DNA of 64,000 nucleotides from Candidatus Giovannonibacteria bacterium RIFCSPLOWO2_02_FULL_45_28 (GTDB lineage: Bacteria; Patescibacteriota; Minisyncoccia; UBA11713; 2-01-FULL-45-33). The stretch lies in NCBI GenBank assembly GCA_001780725.1, contig MFIM01000009.1, positions 656-64,655 of the forward strand, read 5' to 3'. The notes under the pieces are model-generated. The model saw only the letters and a program-made list of their open reading frames with translations. It ran no database searches and was not told the DNA's origin. The translations under genes were made by a program, and so were the position numbers. Position 1 is the stretch's first letter. Every line of letters starts with the position of its first letter. This document shows, piece by piece, positions 5,939-60,351 of the stretch.

Positions 5939-7084
5939 ATGGCTTTTGGCTTTTTTAAGAAAGAGGGCGGCAAGACGCATATTTTGGCGATAGATTTGGG
6001 CACCGCCTCCATATCGGCAGCTATGGCTGTCAGGCAAGAAGGTAAAAAAACAGAAGTTTTGAAAGTTTTTAGATATCCAATAGATTTATTTGAATATCAA
6101 ATAGCGGGAGGTGCACAGCTGCCGCATATTTTTAAAGAAGGATTTTTAAGGGTTTTTAAGGACGCCCATGTGATTTCTGACCACTTGGACGTTGTAGCAG
6201 TTGGACTTTCCGACCCGTTTTTTTTGGATAAAAAAAAGCAAAGAAAAGTTACGCGTTCCAATCCGGCCGCGGCGATTACCGCCGAAGAGATAAATTCTTT
6301 GGTAAAAACATCGGAAAGCGAAATCGCGGCGCAAAATTTGGCAATTGTACGGCGGAACATTTTAAATACGCAAGTTAACGGTTATGATGTTAGAAACGCA
6401 TCGGGTTATAAAGGGAAGACTTTGGCAATAGAAATGATGTTTACTTCAATAAGCGCGACCTTGAAAGAATATATAGAGGGCGCGAAAGATAAATTTTTCC
6501 CAAAAAGCGCAATTTCTTATTACTCCGATGCCGCGATTTTCCGCGAAGCGCTGAGGGCCGCTGGAAATCTTTCCGAGCCGCGCATTGTAATTGACATAGG
6601 CGGAGAGGTGACAGGCATTTTCTTGGTCGACGATTTGATGTTTCAACACTACGGCGCGGCCGCTTTCGGCATACGCACCTTGGCGCGGAGAATTGCATCA
6701 TCTTTAAAAATAGATGCGGCAGACACAGATTCTTTGCTGAAAAAATATACAGCCGGCACTTTAGACGATGCCGCTCAAGCGAAAATTTCAAGGATTATCG
6801 CTTCGGCTTTGGCTGATTGGTGGTTGTCTTTGAAAAATACGTTTAAACAATTTGCGGAAACGGCCGCAATGAAGAAAGTAATGCTTTCCGGCGGCGGCGT
6901 TGATTTTCCGGCCTTCCCCACGTTTTTAAAAGAGAATTTTAAAAAAGATTTTAACATTGAAGTTGACGTCCTGATTTTGCGCGCCGAAGTCTTTAAGGAT
7001 TTTTTTGAGATAGCTTCTCAAAATTTGCTTTCCGGCGGCGGCGACATTGTTTTGGCTTCATTAGTTCTTCTTGCGCCATGGTGA
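5939..7084 (+). CDS. actin-like ATPase, PilM/FtsA-like
   Basis: MAFGFFKK..ILAIDLGTASI resembles a PilM N-terminus (M.F..KK..GIDIG.S.K). Likely start is the ATG at 5939. Confidence 0.5.
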   Translation: MAFGFFKKEGGKTHILAIDLGTASISAAMAVRQEGKKTEVLKVFRYPIDLFEYQIAGGAQLPHIFKEGFLRVFKDAHVISDHLDVVAVGLSDPFFLDKKKQRKVTRSNPAAAITAEEINSLVKTSESEIAAQNLAIVRRNILNTQVNGYDVRNASGYKGKTLAIEMMFTSISATLKEYIEGAKDKFFPKSAISYYSDAAIFREALRAAGNLSEPRIVIDIGGEVTGIFLVDDLMFQHYGAAAFGIRTLARRIASSLKIDAADTDSLLKKYTAGTLDDAAQAKISRIIASALADWWLSLKNTFKQFAETAAMKKVMLSGGGVDFPAFPTFLKENFKKDFNIEVDVLILRAEVFKDFFEIASQNLLSGGGDIVLASLVLLAPW

Positions 7085-18588: not shown

Positions 18589-19661
18589 AAGACTATTACG
18601 AAATTTTGGGGGTGGGGAAAAATGCGTCTCAAGACGAGATTAAGCGCGCGTACAGAAAGTTGGCGCATGAGCATCACCCCGATAAAAAAGGGGGGGATGA
18701 GAAAAAGTTTAAGGAGATAAACGAGGCTTATCAGATTTTGGGAGACGAGCAAAAACGCCAGCAGTATGATAGGTTTGGCAAGACTTTTGCCGGAGGCGGC
18801 CAATCCGGCTTTTCCGGATTTGAAGGCTTTGACTTTTCAAATTTTGGAGGTGGGTTTAACGCGGACCTAGGCGATATCTTCGAAGATTTTCTTGGCGGGC
18901 TTGGCGGATTTTCCGCCCGAGGCGGACAAGGGCGCAGGCGCGAACGGGGCAGCGATATTTCTTTGGGTATTGACGCATCGTTTCAGGAATCCGTTTTCGG
19001 CGGGAGACGGAGCGTTGTTATTGAAAAAACTTCAAAATGTGAGATCTGCGGCGGCAACGGCGCAGAACCCGGAACTAATCTGAAAAAGTGTGCGACTTGC
19101 CAAGGCACAGGTACCGTCCGCGAGATGCGGCGTTCGCTTTTCGGAGCGTTTACAGCGCTTTCGGAATGTTCTCATTGCCGCGGCAGGGGAGAATCACCGG
19201 AACGCGCATGCAAACATTGCCGCGGAGCCGGGATTTTAAGAAAATCCCAAGGCGTGGAAATTATGATTCCTCCGGGCATTCGCGACGGAGAAGCAATCAA
19301 ACTTACAGGTTTAGGAGAAGAAGTTCAAAGAGGACAAGCAGGAGATCTTTATGTTAGGATTCACGTTTTACCGCATCATATTTTCAGGCGCGAGGGGTAC
19401 GATATTTTGATGGATTTGCATCTGCCGCTTTCAAAAATGCTTTTGGGCGGAGAAGAAATGATAGAAACACTGGAAGGAAAAATTTCGGTGCGTATTCCGG
19501 AGCTTTCCAAAGTGGGAGATTTTCTGCGTCTTCGCGGAAAGGGGGTTCCAAGGGGCAGGGGAAGAGGGGATTTGTTAATAAGGCTTTTTCCCAAGCTTCC
19601 CAAAAAGCTCACGCCGCGGGCAAAAGAAATACTTTCGGATTTGGAGAAAGAGGGGTTATAA
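18585..19661 (+). CDS. dnaJ: co-chaperone DnaJ
   Basis: J-domain with HPD (HHPDKK), a G/F region, and four CxxCxGxG zinc-finger repeats. Confidence 0.9.
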
Positions 19662-20502: not shown

Positions 20503-22869
20503 ATGGTGAATTTTCGGATAAAATTAGCTTTGTTTTTAGTGATTTTCCTCTCTCTCTCTCTCGCACAGGCCAATGCCGCTTTTGACTTTTCTTTTGCCAA
20601 TCTTTCTCAATCCAACTCTCTTGCCTCCGTATGGGAAAATGTAAAAGACGACATACAAGACTCATGGGAAAACATAAAAGAGTGGCTACTTCCCGCTCCG
20701 CCGCCCCCATCAACCCCGCCAGGCGAGCAAAAACCGTCGCCCTCATCAACGCGCGGGAAAACATCCAATGTTGAATCCCCAAAAACATCGGATGTTGAGG
20801 AGCGCGTTTTCCCGGGCAACGATTTCGAAGAAGAAAGCAAGACAATCACATCTGAACAACCTCTCGCAACCGAGCGCGCTCCGGAACGCGTCACAGTTTC
20901 CACTAACGGAATTACAGAAGCTCGTCTTTTGCAGTCGCTCAATGCCTTGCGCGAAGAGCTATTGGATCGCTTCTCGCAGATTATCGTCTCCGCGCCCGCG
21001 CCGCTTACATTTCATGGTCCTGCGGAAACAACGCCTGCTTCCGTCGCTATGCTGGCTTTATCCCAAAGAATCAACAACCTATCCGGCAGTTCCAATTCCC
21101 CGCTTACCATCTCCGGAGCAACTTTCTCCGGCTCCAATACTTTTAGCCTTACGGATGCCGATGTTCCCGACGGCATCACTGCTTCCAGCTATCTCCCGCT
21201 TTCCGGAGGCACGCTCTCGGGCGCGCTTACCGGAACCAATCTTACTCTCTCCGGCAACCTCACCGTTTCCGGAGCTCAAACTCTTTCCGGCGCCATCACT
21301 ATTCCCTATCTCACCGCGACCTCCACCACCCAGCCCTCCACTTTCGCCTACAACGTCGGCATCGGGACGACGAGTCCGTGGGGGTTATTATCAGTACATC
21401 CCGACGGGATTACCGGTCCCGCTTTTGTGGTCGGTTCATCAACTGCAACAAACTTTATCGTAACTAACGGCGGCAACGTCGGGATTGGGACGACGAGTCC
21501 GACGGCGCTATTGCATGTGGCGCATACCACCGATATTAGTAAAACCTTAATTAACGCAACTTATCTCGGTTTCTCCAAATTTAAGTTGAGATACGATGAG
21601 GGTTCTAATTACCACATTTTGGAAATCTTTAACAGCACGCTTGCTGGGTTTGGTATTACTCTTAATGCAACAGATTGGACCAGTCGCACTGTGACAATAC
21701 GGGGACATATTGATGCTTCGATACCGCTGACCGTTCAATCTAATGACAACACTCCATCACTTGACATTTTCCAGGTGCGCAGGAGTGGCACTCTAATAGA
21801 CCTTGTGGTTAATTCAAGCGGCTTTGTAGGCATAGGCACATCCACCCCAAATTGGCTCCTGCAGGCGGCTGGAACGCGTCCGTTTTTTACCCTCTCCGAC
21901 ACCGCGGCGGGAACGGATTTGAAACATTGGTATTTGTCATCTCAAGGCGGCAATCTGTATGTGGGCACCACCACCGATGCCTATGCCACCACCACCAATT
22001 ATCAAGCATTGACTATATTAAATAACGGCAACGTCGGCATCGGGACGACGAGTCCATGGCGCACCTTTTCGGTGGCGGGGACGGTGGGATTCTCTTCTAC
22101 CCTAACTTCTTCTGCAACGGGAGATTACCTTTGCATAAATACCGACACATACGAGGTCTCAAGAGGCGCGGGAAGCATCTGCACCACTTCTTCCGAAAGA
22201 TACAAAGAGAATTTTGAAGAACTCGCCTACGGACTGGATTCCGTACTCAAACTTCACCCAATCTCATTTGAATACAAGCCCGAGCTTAATATCGGCCCAG
22301 GCCGCAGAATCGGTTTCACTGCCGAGGAAGTGATTAATGTCATTCCCGAAGCGGTTGTGCTTGATAAAGAAGGTCTGCCCAGCGGGGTTGAATACGAAAA
22401 ACTAACCGCGGTTTTGGCAAAAGCCATACAGGAGCTTTACCAAAAAATTATCTCGCTTTTTGATAAAGACAAGGAGCAAGATCAGCGCATCGCTGAGCTT
22501 GAAGCGCGTATAAATGCTCTGGAGGGAGGAGCGCCGGCGGCGGATACCTCCGCCTCCGCCGAGGCTTCGGCGGACAAGGAACCCCCGACCATCACCATCA
22601 ACGGCAACAATCCCGCGAGAATAGAAGTCGGCGCGGCATACAGCGACCTTGGCGCAACCGTCACTGATAATGTCAATGACAATCTCGGTATTGAAATGTT
22701 TGTCGGAGAAACGCCCATGGAGCAGGCATATATTGATACGAGCGAACCGAATACTTACCACATCACTTACCGCGCAACCGATCAGGCGGGTAATGTCGGC
22801 GAGGCGGTGCGTACGGTGGAGGTGTATAGCCAAGCGACAACAACTTTATCCGAAATCCCGTCTCCGTAA
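20503..22869 (+). CDS. secreted tail-fibre-like surface protein with peptidase S74 intramolecular-chaperone domain and C-terminal Ig-like (DUF5011-like) domain
   Basis: Signal peptide MVNFRIKLALFLVIFLSLSLAQANA; Pro-rich linker; three-to-four GNVGIGTTSP repeats; SERYKENFEEL..LHPISFEYKP..GFTAEEVINVIPEAV..AIQELYQKI matches the intramolecular-chaperone domain; PPTITINGNNPARIEVGAAYSDLGATVTDNV..HITYRATDQAGN is Ig-like. Confidence 0.7.
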   Translation: MVNFRIKLALFLVIFLSLSLAQANAAFDFSFANLSQSNSLASVWENVKDDIQDSWENIKEWLLPAPPPPSTPPGEQKPSPSSTRGKTSNVESPKTSDVEERVFPGNDFEEESKTITSEQPLATERAPERVTVSTNGITEARLLQSLNALREELLDRFSQIIVSAPAPLTFHGPAETTPASVAMLALSQRINNLSGSSNSPLTISGATFSGSNTFSLTDADVPDGITASSYLPLSGGTLSGALTGTNLTLSGNLTVSGAQTLSGAITIPYLTATSTTQPSTFAYNVGIGTTSPWGLLSVHPDGITGPAFVVGSSTATNFIVTNGGNVGIGTTSPTALLHVAHTTDISKTLINATYLGFSKFKLRYDEGSNYHILEIFNSTLAGFGITLNATDWTSRTVTIRGHIDASIPLTVQSNDNTPSLDIFQVRRSGTLIDLVVNSSGFVGIGTSTPNWLLQAAGTRPFFTLSDTAAGTDLKHWYLSSQGGNLYVGTTTDAYATTTNYQALTILNNGNVGIGTTSPWRTFSVAGTVGFSSTLTSSATGDYLCINTDTYEVSRGAGSICTTSSERYKENFEELAYGLDSVLKLHPISFEYKPELNIGPGRRIGFTAEEVINVIPEAVVLDKEGLPSGVEYEKLTAVLAKAIQELYQKIISLFDKDKEQDQRIAELEARINALEGGAPAADTSASAEASADKEPPTITINGNNPARIEVGAAYSDLGATVTDNVNDNLGIEMFVGETPMEQAYIDTSEPNTYHITYRATDQAGNVGEAVRTVEVYSQATTTLSEIPSP
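20548..20562 (+). repeat. (CT)7 dinucleotide tract inside the signal-peptide coding region (encodes LSLSLS)
   Basis: cctctctctctctctc read directly. Confidence 0.8.
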
Positions 22870-22887
22870 AAAATTATTTTTCTATAA

Positions 22888-22969
22888 TCCGCCCACCAGG
22901 AATCGAACCTGGAACCTTCTCCTTTCCGCCAAAGGACGGATCAGCCTCCGGCTGAAAAAGGGAGCTGCT
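22888..22969 (-). pseudogene. tRNA-Lys-derived 3' fragment (D-stem 3' side to acceptor end) carrying a 31-nt insertion in the anticodon loop
   Basis: T-arm and acceptor identical to the intact copy exactly 100 bp downstream. Shares an identical 57-bp segment (22913..22969) with the 5' fragment at 23343..23399. Confidence 0.6.
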
Positions 22970-22987
22970 TATAGAAACAGCGCTTTC

Positions 22988-23060
22988 TCCGCCCACCAGG
23001 AATCGAACCTGGAACCTTCTCCTTAAAAGGGAGCTGCTCTGCCAATTGAGCTATGGGCGG
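22988..23060 (-). tRNA. tRNA-Lys (anticodon UUU)
   Basis: Folded by hand: 7-bp acceptor CCGCCCA/TGGGCGG, D-arm GCTC..GAGC, anticodon loop CTTTTAA, T-arm CCAGG-TTCGATT-CCTGG, discriminator A. No encoded CCA. Confidence 0.85.
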
Positions 23061-23083
23061 AGGAAGCGCTGTGCTTCCACTAC

Positions 23084-23329
23084 TTAGCTTTTTAATATTT
23101 CATCCAAAAACTTTCTGCCAACGCCGGATTTCAAAAAATTTTCACGCTTTCGAGCATTCGTCTTATCGGCACAACTTTCTTGATACACCAACTCAAACGG
23201 CCCGTTTCTTCTCGTGAATTTATTGGAACCATAGTTGTGTTTCTTTAACCTTTCCCCTGGCAATAAATCTGTGCTTCCTACATAACGCTTACCATTTTTT
23301 AAACTTTTTAATACATATATGTACGACAT
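23084..23329 (-). CDS. GIY-YIG nuclease-domain protein (YazA/YhbQ-like, 81 aa)
   Basis: YIYVLKSLKNGKRYVGSTDLLPGERLKKHN...GPFELVY.E is the GIY-YIG pattern. Confidence 0.7.
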   Translation of the reverse strand: MSYIYVLKSLKNGKRYVGSTDLLPGERLKKHNYGSNKFTRRNGPFELVYQESCADKTNARKRENFLKSGVGRKFLDEILKS

Positions 23330-23342
23330 ATTTTCTTAGCGT

Positions 23343-23434
23343 AACCTTCTCCTTTCCGCCAAAGGACGGATCAGCCTCCGGCTGAAAAAGGGAGCTGCTC
23401 TGCCTCCGCCAGCCGGCGGATGAGCTATGGGCGG
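23343..23434 (-). pseudogene. tRNA-Lys-derived 5' fragment (acceptor to variable loop) with a 17-nt hairpin insertion in the D-loop and a 31-nt insertion in the anticodon loop
   Basis: Reverse complement CCGCCCATAGCTCA[TCCGCCGGCTGGCGGAG]GCAGAGCAGCTCCCTTTT[TCAGCC..GGCGGA]AAGGAGAAGGTT aligns to the intact tRNA-Lys apart from the bracketed inserts. Confidence 0.6.
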
Positions 23435-23535
23435 ATGATTTATTTTAACCCTTTTGGCTAATTTGGGCAAGCTTTGCGTTTTCCGTGCGCACTGGTATAC
23501 GCTTGAGGTAGAGAACCTATTAAAATGAGGTTAAA

Positions 23536-24339
23536 ATGAGCCGAAAAAGGATATTAATGTGCGGACCGCCGGAACATTACGGGGTTAAGTACGAGATCAA
23601 CCCGTGGATGAAAAAGAGCAATCAGCCTGATCGCGCAAGGGTCGAAATGCAGTGGCGATCTTTGAAAGACGCTCTTGAAAGAAGCGGCGTTTGGGTGAGC
23701 CTTGTGGGGCAGCTGCCGAATTTTCCTGACATGGTTTTTTCCGCAAATGCCGGAATTTTTAATCGGAACAAAAACACCGTCCTGCTTAGCCGTTTCCGTT
23801 ATCCGGAACGGCAAGGCGAGACGCCGGCTTTCCGTGACTGGTTTTTGTCGCAAGGTTTTAATTTTAAAACTTTACCTTCGGGGATTTTTTTTGAGGGCGA
23901 GGGCGACGCGCTGGTTTTTAAGGATAAGCTTATCTGCGGATACGGCTTCAGGTCTGATGAAGCCGGCGGCGTGCTCGCCGCGGAATTTATGGAGTTGGAG
24001 CCGATTACTTTGCGGCTTATAGATCCGCATTTTTATCATTTGGATACTTGTTTTTGCCCGATTCCGGAAAAGAATTTGATAATGTATTATCCGCCCGCTT
24101 TTGATAGCGCATCATGTTACATCATTGAAACTCTCGGAAATATTATTCGTGTTTCCCAAAAGGACGCGCTTGGTTTTGTTTGCAATGCCGTTGTGTTGGA
24201 TTCCAAACTGATTGCAACACAGGTGAGCTTAGAACTTAAGATTGAGCTTAAAAAACACGGCGTAGAAACAGAAGGAGTCAATCTTTCCGAATTCATTAAA
24301 GCCGGCGGCGCGGCCAAGTGTTTGACATTATTTATATGA
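23536..24339 (+). CDS. amidinotransferase/DDAH-like guanidino-group-modifying enzyme
   Basis: FYHLDTCFCP and a C-terminal GGAAKCLT (Cys nucleophile) suggest the DDAH/amidinotransferase superfamily. Confidence 0.6.
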   Translation: MSRKRILMCGPPEHYGVKYEINPWMKKSNQPDRARVEMQWRSLKDALERSGVWVSLVGQLPNFPDMVFSANAGIFNRNKNTVLLSRFRYPERQGETPAFRDWFLSQGFNFKTLPSGIFFEGEGDALVFKDKLICGYGFRSDEAGGVLAAEFMELEPITLRLIDPHFYHLDTCFCPIPEKNLIMYYPPAFDSASCYIIETLGNIIRVSQKDALGFVCNAVVLDSKLIATQVSLELKIELKKHGVETEGVNLSEFIKAGGAAKCLTLFI

Positions 24340-24374
24340 TGTGTTAAGTCTAAAGAAGGGGGAGGCGGTTCAAA

Positions 24375-25451
24375 ATGCAGAAAAAAATTTTGCTGACTGG
24401 CGGCACGGGTTTCATAGGAAGTCACATTGCTGCAAGATTGCTGCACAACGGATGCTATGTTTATTTTTTGGCAAGGCACGATGTCAGGTTTTCTGCCGAA
24501 GAACGCGTTTTGCGTTCTATGGCACCACTTTCAGCTATGCAGAGAAATCAATACTCGGTTTTGGAGTGTGACATAACATCTGACATTGCGAATATTAGCC
24601 TACAAGATGTGGACGAAGCATGGCATTGCGCGGCATCATTGTCATTTAAAGACGAAGATCGTATAGAAACACTGGCAACGAATGTCGGTGGAACAAAAAA
24701 CCTTCTTGAGCTTTTGGACAAAGTTGGAGTCAAAAGGTTGCATTTTATCAGCACTGCGTACGCATCCGGTCCAAAGTTTAATAACCCTTACGAAGAAAGC
24801 AAATCATTATCTGAAGAGTTGGTGCGCAAGTGGTCTTCAGATTCAAACAGTCAGTTTACTATCTATAGGCCATCTATAATTGTCGGTGATTCTCAAACTG
24901 GCTTTGCTTCTAAATTTGACGGCTATTATACTTGTGCTCGCAGTTTTCATTTGATAAAAAAATTTTTAGGCACGGATTTGAAAAGAAATCCTCGTAATTA
25001 TGATGAATCAGGCGTGTATTTTGATGGCGACATGCTGCATATGCCGGTTGCGTTTCCAGGGCTTCCGGAAACGCTCGTCAATCTTTTACCGGTCGATGTG
25101 GCTGTAAAAAGCATCATTGCTTGTTCTTCCGAAAGCGGCATGTTTTATATCACCAATAACATATCTATCAAGCTCAAAAAGCTTGTGAAAATGAGTATGG
25201 ATGTGCTTGGGATTTGCGATGTGTATGTTGGCGAGGCTCCGACAAACTCCAGCCCCGCTCTTTTGCGGCTCAATACACAAATTAAGCATGCTTCCAAATA
25301 TTATAGTCCTTATGCTTTTTATGGGGATTGCCCGACGTTCAATTGGTCCTCAACAACGCGAGCGCTGGGTAGGCCGATCCATTTTCCGATAACCGAGAAA
25401 TTCATTAGGACAATCCTCGGTTATGCAATAGAGGTCAATTTCAAGGGTTAG
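24375..25451 (+). CDS. NAD(P)-dependent epimerase/dehydratase or reductase (extended SDR)
   Basis: GGTGFIGSH Rossmann motif; YxxxK (YEESK). Confidence 0.7.
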   Translation: MQKKILLTGGTGFIGSHIAARLLHNGCYVYFLARHDVRFSAEERVLRSMAPLSAMQRNQYSVLECDITSDIANISLQDVDEAWHCAASLSFKDEDRIETLATNVGGTKNLLELLDKVGVKRLHFISTAYASGPKFNNPYEESKSLSEELVRKWSSDSNSQFTIYRPSIIVGDSQTGFASKFDGYYTCARSFHLIKKFLGTDLKRNPRNYDESGVYFDGDMLHMPVAFPGLPETLVNLLPVDVAVKSIIACSSESGMFYITNNISIKLKKLVKMSMDVLGICDVYVGEAPTNSSPALLRLNTQIKHASKYYSPYAFYGDCPTFNWSSTTRALGRPIHFPITEKFIRTILGYAIEVNFKG

Positions 25452-54778: not shown

Positions 54779-54780
54779 TG

Positions 54781-54851
54781 CTGGGGGGGAAGGATTCGAA
54801 CCTTCGTACCAAGCTCCAAAGGCTTGTGTCCTACCACTAGACGACCCCCCA
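54781..54851 (-). tRNA. tRNA-Gln (anticodon UUG)
   Basis: Folded by hand: U1-A72 acceptor TGGGGGG/CCCCCCA, anticodon loop CTTTGGA, T-arm GAAGG-TTCGAAT-CCTTC, discriminator G. Confidence 0.85.
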
Positions 54852-59965: not shown

Positions 59966-60351
59966 TTGATTTTTCTGGCTTGAAGTAGCTTTTCGTAATA
60001 TTTGTCCGTCAAAGTGTCGTGGAATTCGTCTAGAAGGTGCGGGTTTTTAAGAGAGTTGACGACTTTAAGCGCGGATACAATTCCCTTTGTTAGTGCCAGC
60101 GAAACGAGCTCTTCAATAATGTGCGCGTGTTCCTGCTCCTTAAGGTCGTAGGCGGCTTTTTGGGCGGCGTCATCCGAAATGGAAGGCGTCGGCGGCGGTC
60201 CGCCGGTTGGCGGATGCGCGGCTTCACGTATCGCTTCGCGCACAATCTCTTTTTCGTGCTTTGCCTCGCCGCGTCCGGCAAGCTCCTTTTTTCTGGCCTC
60301 CAGCTGTTCTTCCAGCCATTTTATTTCCTCATGTACGGATTCCTGGGGCAT
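59962..60351 (-). CDS. hypothetical protein translationally coupled to the coupling-protein-like gene
   Basis: 4-nt overlap with the downstream gene start; Pro/Gly-rich middle region. Confidence 0.4.
   Translation of the reverse strand: MPQESVHEEIKWLEEQLEARKKELAGRGEAKHEKEIVREAIREAAHPPTGGPPPTPSISDDAAQKAAYDLKEQEHAHIIEELVSLALTKGIVSALKVVNSLKNPHLLDEFHDTLTDKYYEKLLQARKIK

Follow-up and report, generated by a model that had tools for sequence, protein, structure and literature searches.

What looks like a selfish cassette directed at tRNA genes: a GIY-YIG nuclease gene and an intact tRNA-Lys inside a hairpin-interrupted tRNA-Lys gene of a bacterium

Why should a complete tRNA-Lys gene and a small nuclease gene lie between the two halves of another tRNA-Lys gene? 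This arrangement is found in the 64,000-nt stretch of Candidatus Giovannonibacteria DNA analyzed here (hereafter, the window). Read along the minus strand, the order is a tRNA-Lys 5′ part, an 81-aa GIY-YIG open reading frame (ORF), an intact tRNA-Lys(UUU) and a tRNA-Lys 3′ part, with genes for a surface protein and a DDAH-like enzyme on either side. An initial annotation had described these four pieces and their coordinates, and ARAGORN, Rfam, the ORF list, Pfam and a repeat search bear them out. We consider, at a rough probability of 55%, that the locus is the resident copy of a homing-type selfish cassette specific for tRNA genes, which, judging from its sequence, would carry a replacement tRNA and would lie inside an older tRNA-Lys gene interrupted by a double hairpin (HPHP). 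The features on which the argument draws are as follows.

23442-23470, minus strand: promoter-like site TTGCCC-17-TAAAAT, from a consensus scan only
23343-23434, minus strand: outer tRNA-Lys 5′ portion, from the sequence, the repeats D1/D3/D5 that match the intact tRNA, and reconstruction
23405-23420, minus strand: single hairpin of 16 nt, TCCGCC-GGCT-GGCGGA, which stands in place of ATT in the outer 5′ portion's D-loop
23355-23385, minus strand: HPHP copy 1, TCAGCC-GGA-GGCTGA + TCCGTC-CTTT-GGCGGA, between tRNA positions 36 and 37
23330-23342, minus strand: A+T-rich linker of 13 nt that joins the outer 5′ portion to the ATG, read from the sequence
23084-23329, minus strand: GIY-YIG nuclease ORF, 81 aa, catalytic domain only, from the ORF list and Pfam
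23061-23072, minus strand: 5′ arm of an extended acceptor helix (ACAGCGCTTCCT), inverted repeat I1
22988-23060, minus strand: inner intact tRNA-Lys(UUU), from ARAGORN and Rfam (68.5 bits)
22977-22987, minus strand: 3′ arm of the extended acceptor helix (GAAAGCGCTGT), inverted repeat I1
22888-22969, minus strand: outer tRNA-Lys 3′ portion, from the sequence, repeats and reconstruction
22913-22969, no strand assigned: right copy of an exact 57-bp direct repeat, left copy at 23343-23399
22879-22892, no strand assigned: arm of the 14-nt inverted repeat I6, partner at 22964-22977, 86% complementary

The inner tRNA, called by ARAGORN as tRNA-Lys(ttt) at 22987-23061 on the minus strand, is presumably the functional gene. 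Inverted repeat I1 (19 nt, 95% complementary) lengthens its acceptor stem, and this complete, clamped tRNA-Lys(UUU) gene forms, with the linker and the GIY-YIG ORF, a cassette of about 370 bp; the GIY-YIG gene is the sole ORF between the repeats. The outer 5′ portion is made up of tRNA positions 1-14 (23434-23421), the D-loop hairpin, positions 18-36 (23404-23386), the HPHP and positions 37-48 (23354-23343), and the outer 3′ portion of positions ~23-36 (22969-22956), HPHP copy 2 (22955-22925) and positions 37-73 (22924-22888). As reported earlier, the two portions share an identical 57-bp segment, which is an exact direct repeat containing 14 nt of tRNA, the HPHP and 12 nt of tRNA, with a start-to-start spacing of 430 bp. 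A second exact direct repeat, of 37 bp, lies at 22888-22924 and 22988-23024, and direct repeats of 57 and 37 bp are not a chance product. Between the 5′ fragment and the start codon we counted 13 nt, where 12 had been given. The promoter-like site ends ~8 nt upstream of the outer 5′ fragment; it is presumably the promoter of the resident tRNA and, by inference, might now drive the whole unit. The arms of inverted repeat I6 bracket the outer 3′ portion.

The most distinctive part of the system is a conserved double-hairpin module to which the initial annotation did not refer. The HPHP is a 31-nt double hairpin situated in the anticodon loop of both outer halves, and the single D-loop hairpin is present in the outer 5′ half alone. 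When the halves are joined through the 57-bp repeat, the 31-nt insert is taken out and the 16-nt D-loop hairpin is replaced by ATT, the product does not differ from the intact tRNA at any base, and ARAGORN recognizes the gene rebuilt without hairpins as tRNA-Lys(ttt). The proposal that the halves reconstruct one tRNA gene thus holds insofar as they join through the overlap, but the rebuilt gene is abnormal: it carries TCCGCCGGCTGGCGGA in the D-loop (23420-23405) and TCAGCCGGAGGCTGA+TCCGTCCTTTGGCGGA on the 3′ side of the anticodon (23385-23355; second copy 22955-22925). Under a covariance model the intact tRNA scores 68.5 bits, whereas neither native interrupted half was picked up as a tRNA by Rfam at E≤10. 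At the same threshold, an Rfam search of 22000-24500 gave only tRNA and chance-level matches, with no ribozyme or group I intron core. We rejected a split or permuted tRNA of the archaeal type, because the halves have 57 bp in common and enclose an intact gene and the host is a bacterium, and also a hammerhead-like three-way junction, because the conserved-core positions are fully Watson-Crick paired and Rfam finds nothing. No further HPHP copies were found in the 64-kb window, and its tRNA-Gln is clean; the hairpin-like 15- and 16-mers at 18912 and 60199 were discarded as extra copies because both are within coding sequence.

What kind of enzyme does the ORF encode? The Pfam GIY-YIG domain (PF01541) is matched with 54.1 bits (E 2e-14), above the family cut-off of 22.6, and Y5, Y16, R27, H31 and E63, of which Y5 and Y16 are the motif tyrosines, are invariant in 28 sequences. 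The AlphaFold2 model of the protein (pLDDT 93.5) was matched by Foldseek to 1ZG2, Slx1 6SEH, I-TevI 1LN0 and the N-terminal domains of UvrC; with the Slx1 nuclease domain 6SEH it superposes at TM 0.70 and rmsd 2.2 Å. A profile search of the PDB returned 1ZG2 (E 3e-7) and 1YWL (E 1e-6), both named hypothetical UPF0213 proteins by their depositors, and Slx1 at 0.16, and the NCBIfam group I intron endonuclease profile gave 23 bits, under its cut-off of 56. As judged from profiles and the modeled fold, the protein is nearer to UPF0213 and Slx1 than to enzymes of the intron type or I-TevI type. Its single domain spans residues 1-68 of 81, and no separate DNA-binding domain was found; nor was a partner protein for the nuclease seen here. 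The expression "homing-endonuclease-like", used in the initial annotation, is apt for a nuclease-linked insertion, but classical homing endonucleases are more than the bare catalytic domain that makes up this protein.

Four observations make a nuclease-linked insertion that carries its own tRNA copy, as first proposed from the letters, the best fit. First, a tRNA gene adjoins 77 of the 80 related GIY-YIG loci from other genomes. At 59 of the 80 a same-strand tRNA lies directly 3′ of the ORF, at 16 more a tRNA-like 5′ start follows it (an intron-bearing tRNA-Asn or a contig end) and two are mirror images; the stop codon of the ORF is the tRNA's own U8-A9-G10 in 23 loci. Second, a 5′ fragment of the same tRNA is present upstream of the ORF in 39 of the 57 loci tested. 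Third, the layout of the window, a discrete cassette between direct repeats, is repeated in the tRNA-Lys clade: repeats of 42-62 bp spanning the HPHP, 421-430 bp apart, occur at 10 tRNA-Lys loci (the window and 9 others), and an extended acceptor helix, unrelated in sequence from locus to locus, at about 13-16 of 25. Fourth, the inner and outer tRNA alleles differ at L030, L091, L164 and L136, the differences being compensatory 3:70 acceptor changes at L030 and L091 and several pairs at L164; at the locus in the window, the halves match the inner tRNA at 100% identity, and a separate origin is thus not demonstrable there. Related loci lie at ten or more different tRNA species, their flanks and tRNAs differ across genomes, and several lie directly upstream of intron-bearing tRNA-Asn genes. 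The GIY-YIG proteins group by target tRNA, showing that nuclease clade and tRNA type are linked. Most related loci have neither a downstream half nor a direct repeat, and one mechanism may therefore not fit all of them. Three contigs terminate in tandem 100-bp arrays of the 3′ half, and L017 and L112 also contain tandem copies.

How might such a cassette move? We propose that the DNA of the tRNA gene is cleaved by the Slx1-like nuclease within or close to the double hairpin or a loop of the cloverleaf, a target that would fit the cleavage of branched DNA by Slx1 (PMC8287910). The break might be repaired from a cassette-bearing copy, or staggered cuts flanking the HPHP might be filled in; either route would copy in the ORF and the replacement tRNA and duplicate the HPHP-containing segment, and the displaced pieces of the resident gene would persist as flanking halves. 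From the resident tRNA promoter, a single RNA comprising the 5′ half, the ORF and the tRNA would be made, and RNase P and 3′ processing would free the inner tRNA. With the outer gene disrupted, the sole working copy would be in the cassette; recombination between the repeats would cause a harmful loss of the cassette, which would thereby be stabilized. The HPHP copies found elsewhere without the ORF might be its non-autonomous relatives.

The alternative that survives best, although we consider it rather unlikely, is that the nuclease has been domesticated to the benefit of the host. It would then be an immobile, vertically inherited partner of the tRNA gene that polices HPHP-invaded tRNA genes or acts on the shared transcript, and the halves would be ancient relics. 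In the tRNA-Lys clade, dN/dS is ~0.07, a codon-level comparison that shows strong purifying selection on the nuclease, and synonymous sites are saturated between clade members, so that the association is of long standing, not the product of a recent insertion, and its inheritance might have been vertical throughout. Copies per genome are low among the genome matches, and the family is nearly absent from viral contigs (one relative in 2.9 million), so that no obvious vector is seen. The arrangement also appears fixed in this population. Across four contigs taken from different assemblies to represent the 24 that were read and carry the neighboring DDAH gene, the 666-bp intergenic region does not vary, and five GIY-YIG-bearing contigs match the window exactly as well; among the contigs read there were no alternative junctions and no polymorphism for presence or absence of the cassette. 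A search for an empty site by way of the DDAH-like gene, whose homologues found here are at most 68% identical, led to L207-L209. Synteny is absent from L208 and L209. L207, the sole syntenic relative found and a distant one, keeps it downstream, but on the side that matters here uvrA is present and tRNA-Lys is lacking. The uninterrupted site to which the initial annotation had looked was thus not found, and related genomes show the same arrangement, an outcome that it had itself counted against an insertion. Vertical descent is, however, difficult to reconcile with the distribution of the family. Proteins 60-80% identical occur in metagenome-assembled genomes (MAGs) labelled as five different phyla (Patescibacteria, Omnitrophota, Chloroflexota, Planctomycetes and Proteobacteria), and such similarity across phylum labels, with ten or more tRNA species occupied, requires repeated transfer or target switching. 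The differing inner and outer alleles at several loci also speak against domestication, and the complete identity between the halves and the inner tRNA in the window weighs against relics of one ancient event, barring frequent gene conversion.

Could the double hairpins instead be removable, intron-like inserts, with an outer gene that houses the cassette in its variable-loop region yet still yields a functional tRNA after RNA processing, and an ORF that is an intron-type passenger? The insertions are sited in loops, in the D-loop and at position 36/37, where tRNA introns classically lie, and the outer halves have stayed tRNA-like at many loci; tRNA introns are also unusually numerous in Patescibacteria (PMC13011429). 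We nevertheless find this explanation improbable. When the HPHP was deleted in silico at 129 sites, none gave a complete tRNA, which means that the HPHP-bearing tRNA pieces are always truncated, and no complete tRNA gene bearing just an HPHP was seen among these sites. An intact tRNA is always present alongside, and Rfam (E≤10) places no ribozyme family in the region. A length of 31 nt is also too small for the known self-cleaving or self-splicing folds. The module itself is conserved as a structure. Two adjacent G+C-rich hairpins lie at most 75 nt upstream of the ATG at 56 of 79 related loci, as against 10 of 1600 control windows. The hairpin pairs are kept through compensatory changes: in an alignment of the HPHP, 99% of cells are paired and 6 of 12 pairs change on both sides, a value that 0 of 500 shuffles reach, the rows being mostly preselected for pairing, a bias from which the enrichment upstream of the ATG is free. 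A conceivable pairing between the two hairpin loops, as a kissing loop or a palindrome of the whole module, would join only 70% of the cells, with little covariation, and carries no weight in the argument. A constant distance between the HPHP and the breakpoint was rejected, as it is 7-13 nt in the tRNA-Lys clade and 3-11 nt elsewhere.

The initial annotation had regarded a duplication-mediated rearrangement as an equally good explanation. Slippage or unequal crossing-over between tRNA repeats would then have made the halves independently of the nuclease, whose ORF would be there by accident, and the tandem arrays and copies described above do indicate that the region is recombination-prone. 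We give this very little credence, because the same architecture of ORF, tRNA, fragment and HPHP in dozens of unrelated genomes and tRNA species is not reproducible by chance, and because this recurrence, the layout of the tRNA-Lys clade and the differing inner and outer alleles make a one-off event unlikely. An assembly artefact caused by the repeated tRNA sequence, which might be suspected from the many related contigs that end at these loci and the three that end in loops, is hardly credible, because the whole region is identical inside contigs of 45-71 kb from independent JGI, ENA and NCBI assemblies.

How does the proposed cassette compare with known systems? Phage T4 SegB is described as a GIY-YIG homing endonuclease that recognizes the T-psi-C motif of tRNA and spreads with neighboring tRNA genes (PMC2330249). 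It is encoded by a free-standing gene within a cluster of tRNA genes and is able to bring about segmental amplification of the tRNA-containing segment (PMC2330249, PMC13096335); the abstracts mention no tRNA fragments at the flanks, double-hairpin module or nested tRNA. The window resembles SegB in having a GIY-YIG nuclease gene among tRNA genes, and the segmental amplification recalls the tandem arrays described above; SegB, however, is a phage protein, whereas the 81-aa protein is cellular and closer to UPF0213/Slx1. SegB is also much larger than 81 aa and has DNA-binding parts. With UPF0213/YhbQ-type proteins and Slx1 the window protein has the catalytic fold and motifs in common, although Slx1 requires Slx4 and has a RING domain, whereas the window protein is a bare domain. 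Integrative elements that enter tRNA genes bring along a copy of the tRNA end, by which the interrupted gene is made whole again. As in the window, the target is a tRNA gene, a tRNA direct repeat flanks the insert and an intact tRNA is kept; in contrast, the window insert has no tyrosine or serine integrase and measures only ~0.4 kb, it duplicates not the 3′ end of the tRNA but the middle or 5′ part, or else brings a whole tRNA with it, and its repeat holds a hairpin module. Fragments of tRNA genes are also discussed in PMC9897764. The tRNA introns of Patescibacteria share the host phylum and the interruption of tRNA genes with the window, but the interruption is resolved there by splicing and here by a second intact gene, with no ribozyme detected; the enzymes in that study are of the HNH, LAGLIDADG and PD-(D/E)XK types, with no GIY-YIG (PMC13011429).

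The double hairpin itself recalls the double-hairpin elements (DHEs) of fungal mitochondria, which are short and G+C-rich, consist of two adjacent hairpins and occur in many solo copies, some inside RNA genes (PMC10085805, PMC3787672). These papers, which cite Paquin et al. 2000, also describe mobile endonuclease ORFs bordered by short inverted repeats, and endonuclease-mediated transfer that gives rise to hybrid host genes. The HPHP is DHE-like in its two adjacent G+C-rich hairpins with compensatory changes and in its dispersed solo copies. DHEs are organellar and the HPHP is bacterial. The likeness is one of function and architecture only, with no sequence relationship expected, and the targeting of tRNA genes with a replacement tRNA is not reported for DHEs (PMC10085805, PMC3787672). 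The bacterial loci discussed here differ from each other in flanks and in target. To our knowledge, the mode of movement of fungal DHEs is still unresolved. In the searchable literature, in which few subscription journals are covered, we found no account of bacterial GIY-YIG genes accompanied by double hairpins and by pieces of tRNA at their flanks, and the system looks like tRNA-gene-targeting selfish DNA of a so far undescribed kind. If so, one selfish system that targets the most conserved genes of the cell would embrace ~1,900 clusters (50% identity, E≤1e-10) of the tiny proteins from uncultured bacteria that now bear the name "GIY-YIG family proteins" and no functional annotation, and it would be a bacterial counterpart of the fungal elements. 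The system would also account for pieces of tRNA genes in metagenome assemblies and for contigs that break off at tRNA loci. With an 81-aa nuclease and a defined 30-nt DNA or RNA partner, experiments could address the way in which a bare GIY-YIG domain locates its target, and also whether a replacement tRNA allows a mobile element to hold the host hostage.

Might the HPHP and the minimal Slx1-like GIY-YIG protein together form an unrecognized class of bacterial mobile DNA that reads the structure of DNA and not its sequence? We raise this only tentatively, and think it doubtful: a non-autonomous HPHP would enter hairpin loops, those of tRNA genes among them, and the form with an ORF would insert beside it with a replacement tRNA. 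A host whose own gene stayed disrupted could not then dispense with the cassette, which would act as an addiction module made from a tRNA gene. Stretches with the exact HPHP pattern number at least 118 in metagenome contigs, and among the matches listed 96 of 129 copies are solo, with no GIY-YIG gene within 900 nt. Solo copies are modestly enriched in host hairpin loops, 19% of sites falling below the 5th percentile of the controls, as against 5% of the controls themselves (p = 0.005); a rule that the HPHP always lies in such a loop was rejected, as it is true for this subset only. Striking terminator-like cases are L113, L147, L150 and L182.

How is the locus built? The initial annotation had placed a GIY-YIG nuclease gene and an intact tRNA-Lys between two halves of a disrupted tRNA-Lys gene, and both the locus and its coordinates proved right by sequence, repeats, ARAGORN, Rfam and the open reading frame (ORF). 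The host genome is that of a Candidatus Giovannonibacteria bacterium (Patescibacteria/CPR).

Features of the tRNA-Lys locus
23470-23442, minus strand: promoter-like site, predicted from sequence
23434-23343, minus strand: tRNA-Lys 5′ portion
Between 5′ portion and ORF, minus strand: linker, 13 nt
23329-23084, minus strand: GIY-YIG ORF, 81 aa
Between ORF and intact tRNA, minus strand: spacer, 23 nt
23060-22988, minus strand: intact tRNA-Lys(UUU) (ARAGORN; Rfam 68.5 bits)
Between intact tRNA and 3′ portion, minus strand: spacer, 19 nt
22969-22888, minus strand: tRNA-Lys 3′ portion
22913-22969 and 23343-23399: direct repeat, exact, 57 bp
22888-22924 and 22988-23024: repeat, exact, 37 bp

Absent from the earlier account were an identical 31-nt double hairpin (HPHP) inserted between tRNA positions 36/37 in both portions, consisting of two adjoining 6-bp hairpins (TCAGCC-GGA-GGCTGA, then TCCGTC-CTTT-GGCGGA), and a further hairpin in the D-loop of the 5′ portion, where TCCGCC-GGCT-GGCGGA replaces ATT. 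When the halves were merged in silico via the 57-bp repeat, the HPHP removed and ATT put back, the product equalled the inner (intact) tRNA at every base, and ARAGORN called it tRNA-Lys(ttt). The halves therefore rebuild one tRNA, as had been proposed, but only after this deletion and restoration; the native halves have no tRNA match in Rfam at E<=10. The inner tRNA is flanked by ACAGCGCTTCCT and GAAAGCGCTGT, which turn its acceptor stem into a longer, 19-nt helix (inverted repeat I1). Near the sole other tRNA gene of the window, tRNA-Gln(UUG) at 54780-54851, there is no GIY-YIG gene, tRNA fragment or hairpin module, which is consistent with the target specificity of a resident element.

The association with tRNA genes recurs widely. 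We examined 80 loci encoding relatives of the ORF, drawn from one-genome-per-species collections, whose MAG labels are Patescibacteria, Omnitrophota, Chloroflexota, Planctomycetes and Proteobacteria. At 59 of the 80, a tRNA on the same strand begins no more than ~150 nt from the ORF stop, mostly at -11 to +25; at 16 the ORF is followed by a tRNA-like 5′ start that ARAGORN did not complete (an intron-bearing tRNA-Asn or a contig end), two have the mirror order of tRNA, ORF, HPHP and 3′ fragment, one contig ends at the ORF, and two have no tRNA at the ORF. The linked species are tRNA-Lys, Asn, Val, Ala, Ile, Thr, Met, Pro, Phe, His and Arg, and in 23 loci the ORF lacks its own stop codon, ending instead on the U8-A9-G10 of the tRNA. 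Of the 57 loci tested, 39 carry a 5′ fragment of the linked tRNA (positions 1-12, 1-17, 1-28, or 1-36 plus 37-47) 45-125 nt ahead of the ATG, with a double hairpin between fragment and ATG.

Several loci show variant layouts. In L033, L042, L058, L060, L068, L080, L082 and L084, a long structured insert splits, after GGCTGT, the tRNA-Asn that follows the ORF. This insert is probably the position-35/36 group I intron known from Patescibacteria (PMC13011429); if so, one tRNA gene hosts two different kinds of invader. In the mirror-image loci L018, L022 and L026, an intact tRNA (Val or Leu) is followed by the ORF and then by the 3′ fragment of the same tRNA from the T-loop, and the ORF runs into the HPHP, with its stop in GGCTGA; the downstream pseudo-tRNA of L018 holds two HPHP copies, in the D-loop and the T-loop. 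In L135 (about 1098-1900), HPHP plus GIY-YIG ORF occurs twice in tandem upstream of one tRNA-Lys, both ORFs being 82% identical to the window protein.

The hairpin module is itself conserved. Two adjoining G+C-rich hairpins lie <=75 nt upstream of the ATG at 56 of 79 loci, as against 10 of 1600 control windows drawn from the same loci. The module is typically 30 nt long; its inner GCC/GGC pairs are invariant, while in each stem the outer three pairs covary (TCAGCC/GGCTGA, TCCGCC/GGCGGA, CCAGCC/GGCTGG, CTCGCC/GGCGAG and others). In the alignment, both-side changes occur in 6 of 12 pairs and none of 500 shuffles reaches the observed score; 99% of cells are paired, a percentage that weighs less than the enrichment test because most rows were preselected by a pairing filter. 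An exact-pattern scan of metagenome contigs yielded at least 118 HPHP stretches, the chance expectation for 26 specified bases being, by our own estimate, far below one. Among the matches listed, 96 of 129 copies lack a GIY-YIG gene in the surrounding 900 nt on either side. Some solo copies lie inside tRNA pieces, including the anticodon loops of tRNA-Arg(UCU) and tRNA-Lys(CUU), and some in terminator-like hairpin loops (L113, L147, L150, L182); complementary flanks are modestly enriched (19% of sites past the controls' 5th percentile, p = 0.005). Solo copies also often occur within larger repeated units with conserved flanks of their own (L107, L114, L158; L108, L182, L183; L119, L139, L149, L171, L172), for example ...ATTCCGGA[HPHP]AAAGTCCGGAATGACA and runs of GTTCAAGTTC, which suggests composite repeat families built on the module. 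That HPHP and nuclease together form a new class of mobile DNA targeting structure is a real possibility, though less likely than not.

The ORF product matches Pfam GIY-YIG (E 2e-14), and its two motif tyrosines, along with R27, H31 and E63, do not vary among 28 relatives. A PDB profile search ranked the UPF0213 proteins BH0048 (1ZG2, E 3e-7) and EF2693 (1YWL) first and Slx1 next, and the confident AlphaFold2 model (pLDDT 93.5) superposed best on 1ZG2, the nuclease domain of Slx1 (TM 0.70, rmsd 2.2 Å), the catalytic domain of I-TevI and the N-terminal domain of UvrC. The protein is the catalytic domain alone, without a DNA-binding extension, and it belongs to a large family, whose 1,900 representatives (50%-identity clusters, E<=1e-10) nearly all measure 80-125 aa. 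Because dN/dS among the tRNA-Lys-linked copies is ~0.07 with saturated synonymous sites, the protein is maintained by selection. In P0101, P0111, P0089, P0013 and many other entries, the predicted protein is longer by 20-45 residues at the N-terminus or by a C-terminal tail (e.g., VSAEGGSASG). These additions are gene-calling artefacts, translated from the upstream tRNA fragment or HPHP or from a downstream HPHP, and they inflate the family's apparent length diversity.

In a distance tree, the tRNA-Lys-linked proteins form a single cluster, so that clade and target go together. The layout [1-36][HPHP][37-47][linker][ORF][spacer][tRNA-Lys][complement of spacer][about 30-36][HPHP][37-76] recurs in genome and metagenome loci. 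The window shares with nine other loci a pair of HPHP-spanning direct repeats, 42-62 bp long and separated by 421-430 bp (partial repeats in two further tRNA-Lys loci), a spacing that makes the insert a discrete unit of ~370 bp. An acceptor-stem extension of 10-17 bp clamps the inner tRNA in about 13-16 of 25 loci; its sequence differs in every locus, with a mean duplex energy of -13.4 kcal/mol versus -5.2 kcal/mol for mismatched flanks. Other clade members have the upstream half only, without downstream half or clamp. In the window's own population, three independent contigs (L003, L006, L008) diverge from the window directly after the outer 3′ half (equivalent to 22887) and end in 2-4 tandem 100-bp copies of spacer plus HPHP-bearing 3′ half; similar copies are internal to L017 and L112, and L093 and L120 are grouped with these. 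The copies are either de Bruijn graph loops or true copy-number variation, and recall the segmental amplification driven by T4 SegB. In three loci with no ORF, L164 (about 6470-6760), L138 (about 6580-6760) and L125, a tRNA gene is nested within a tRNA gene: an intact tRNA (Lys-CUU or Arg-UCU) with a perfect 13-15-bp clamp stem occupies the D-loop of an outer pseudo-tRNA, whose anticodon loop contains HPHP. The D-loop hairpin of the window resembles what the paired acceptor strands of such an inner tRNA would leave after collapse.

Does the cassette (linker, ORF and spacer-flanked inner tRNA) carry its own tRNA? Since inner and outer sequences agree in the window, the origin of the tRNA can be read only at other loci. 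First, the outer halves of L030 have C3:G70 and its inner tRNA G3:C70. Second, L091 has G3:C70 in the outer halves and A3:T70 in the inner tRNA. Third, the acceptor stems of the related L164 differ at several pairs, each self-complementary, and L136 has three different alleles. Paired changes across separated halves are expected of a once-functional resident gene, not of random decay. These differences support an incoming tRNA copy and hence part of the initial interpretation, a mobile insertion bringing its own tRNA into a tRNA gene, although the empty site was not found; that interpretation is partly supported and is here considerably extended.

We propose that the Slx1-like nuclease cleaves the DNA of tRNA genes where it is structured, at either the HPHP or the cloverleaf loops, and that repair off a cassette-bearing copy would bring in the ORF together with a replacement tRNA and duplicate the HPHP-containing segment; staggered cuts flanking the nearly symmetric HPHP, followed by fill-in, might have the same effect. 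The unit would be transcribed from the resident promoter and the inner tRNA freed by RNase P and 3′ processing. The clamp helix may prevent mispairing of the inner tRNA with the duplicated halves, or may have arisen as a side effect of fold-back synthesis. The outer gene would stay disrupted, and the cassette would be stabilised because recombination between the repeats would remove the sole working tRNA-Lys(UUU). To this sequence of cutting, copying-in and stabilisation as a whole we assign a probability of about 0.55. Its main rival, a domesticated and vertically inherited nuclease linked to the tRNA, would fit the saturated dS, the fixation of the arrangement in this population and the search among relatives that found no empty site; set beside the inner and outer allele differences, we consider it unlikely. 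Intron-like removal of the HPHP is a weak explanation: among the matches listed, in silico removal gave a complete tRNA at none of the sites, so HPHP-bearing tRNA sequences are always truncated and lie beside an intact gene. Also weak are a rearrangement independent of the nuclease, given the recurrence of the ORF beside tRNA genes, and an assembly artefact, given the unchanged protein and surroundings on MFHX01000026.1 (GCA_001780605.1) and in many aquifer metagenome assemblies.

We rated the system a selfish element of the free-standing GIY-YIG type that resides at tRNA genes. The closest characterised system is T4 SegB, a GIY-YIG homing endonuclease encoded as a free-standing gene within a tRNA cluster, with a site that takes in the T-psi-C motif; it spreads together with neighbouring tRNA genes (PMC2330249) and also drives segmental amplification (PMC13096335). 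The nearest architectural analogue is the fungal mitochondrial elements, which include double-hairpin elements (PMC10085805) and short inverted repeats that border endonuclease ORFs and lead to gene hybrids (PMC3787672). In contrast to both, the present system is bacterial and cellular, combines a minimal nuclease with a conserved HPHP module and is flanked by target-tRNA fragments, and its tRNA-Lys clade nests a whole clamped tRNA within the old gene; among 2.9 million viral contigs there was one relative only. The paper on Patescibacteria tRNA introns (PMC13011429) is silent on GIY-YIG genes, duplications and hairpins, and a literature search whose scope excluded most subscription journals found no description of the system.

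Hairpin-like sequences also occur in coding regions of the window. A perfect 15-mer, TCCGCC-CGA-GGCGGA, lies in frame (S-A-R-G-G) at 18912-18926 in the Gly/Phe-rich linker of dnaJ, and could be due to chance or to an in-frame hairpin insertion; a similar 16-mer lies at 60199-60214, within a Pro/Gly-rich stretch of a 129-aa ORF.
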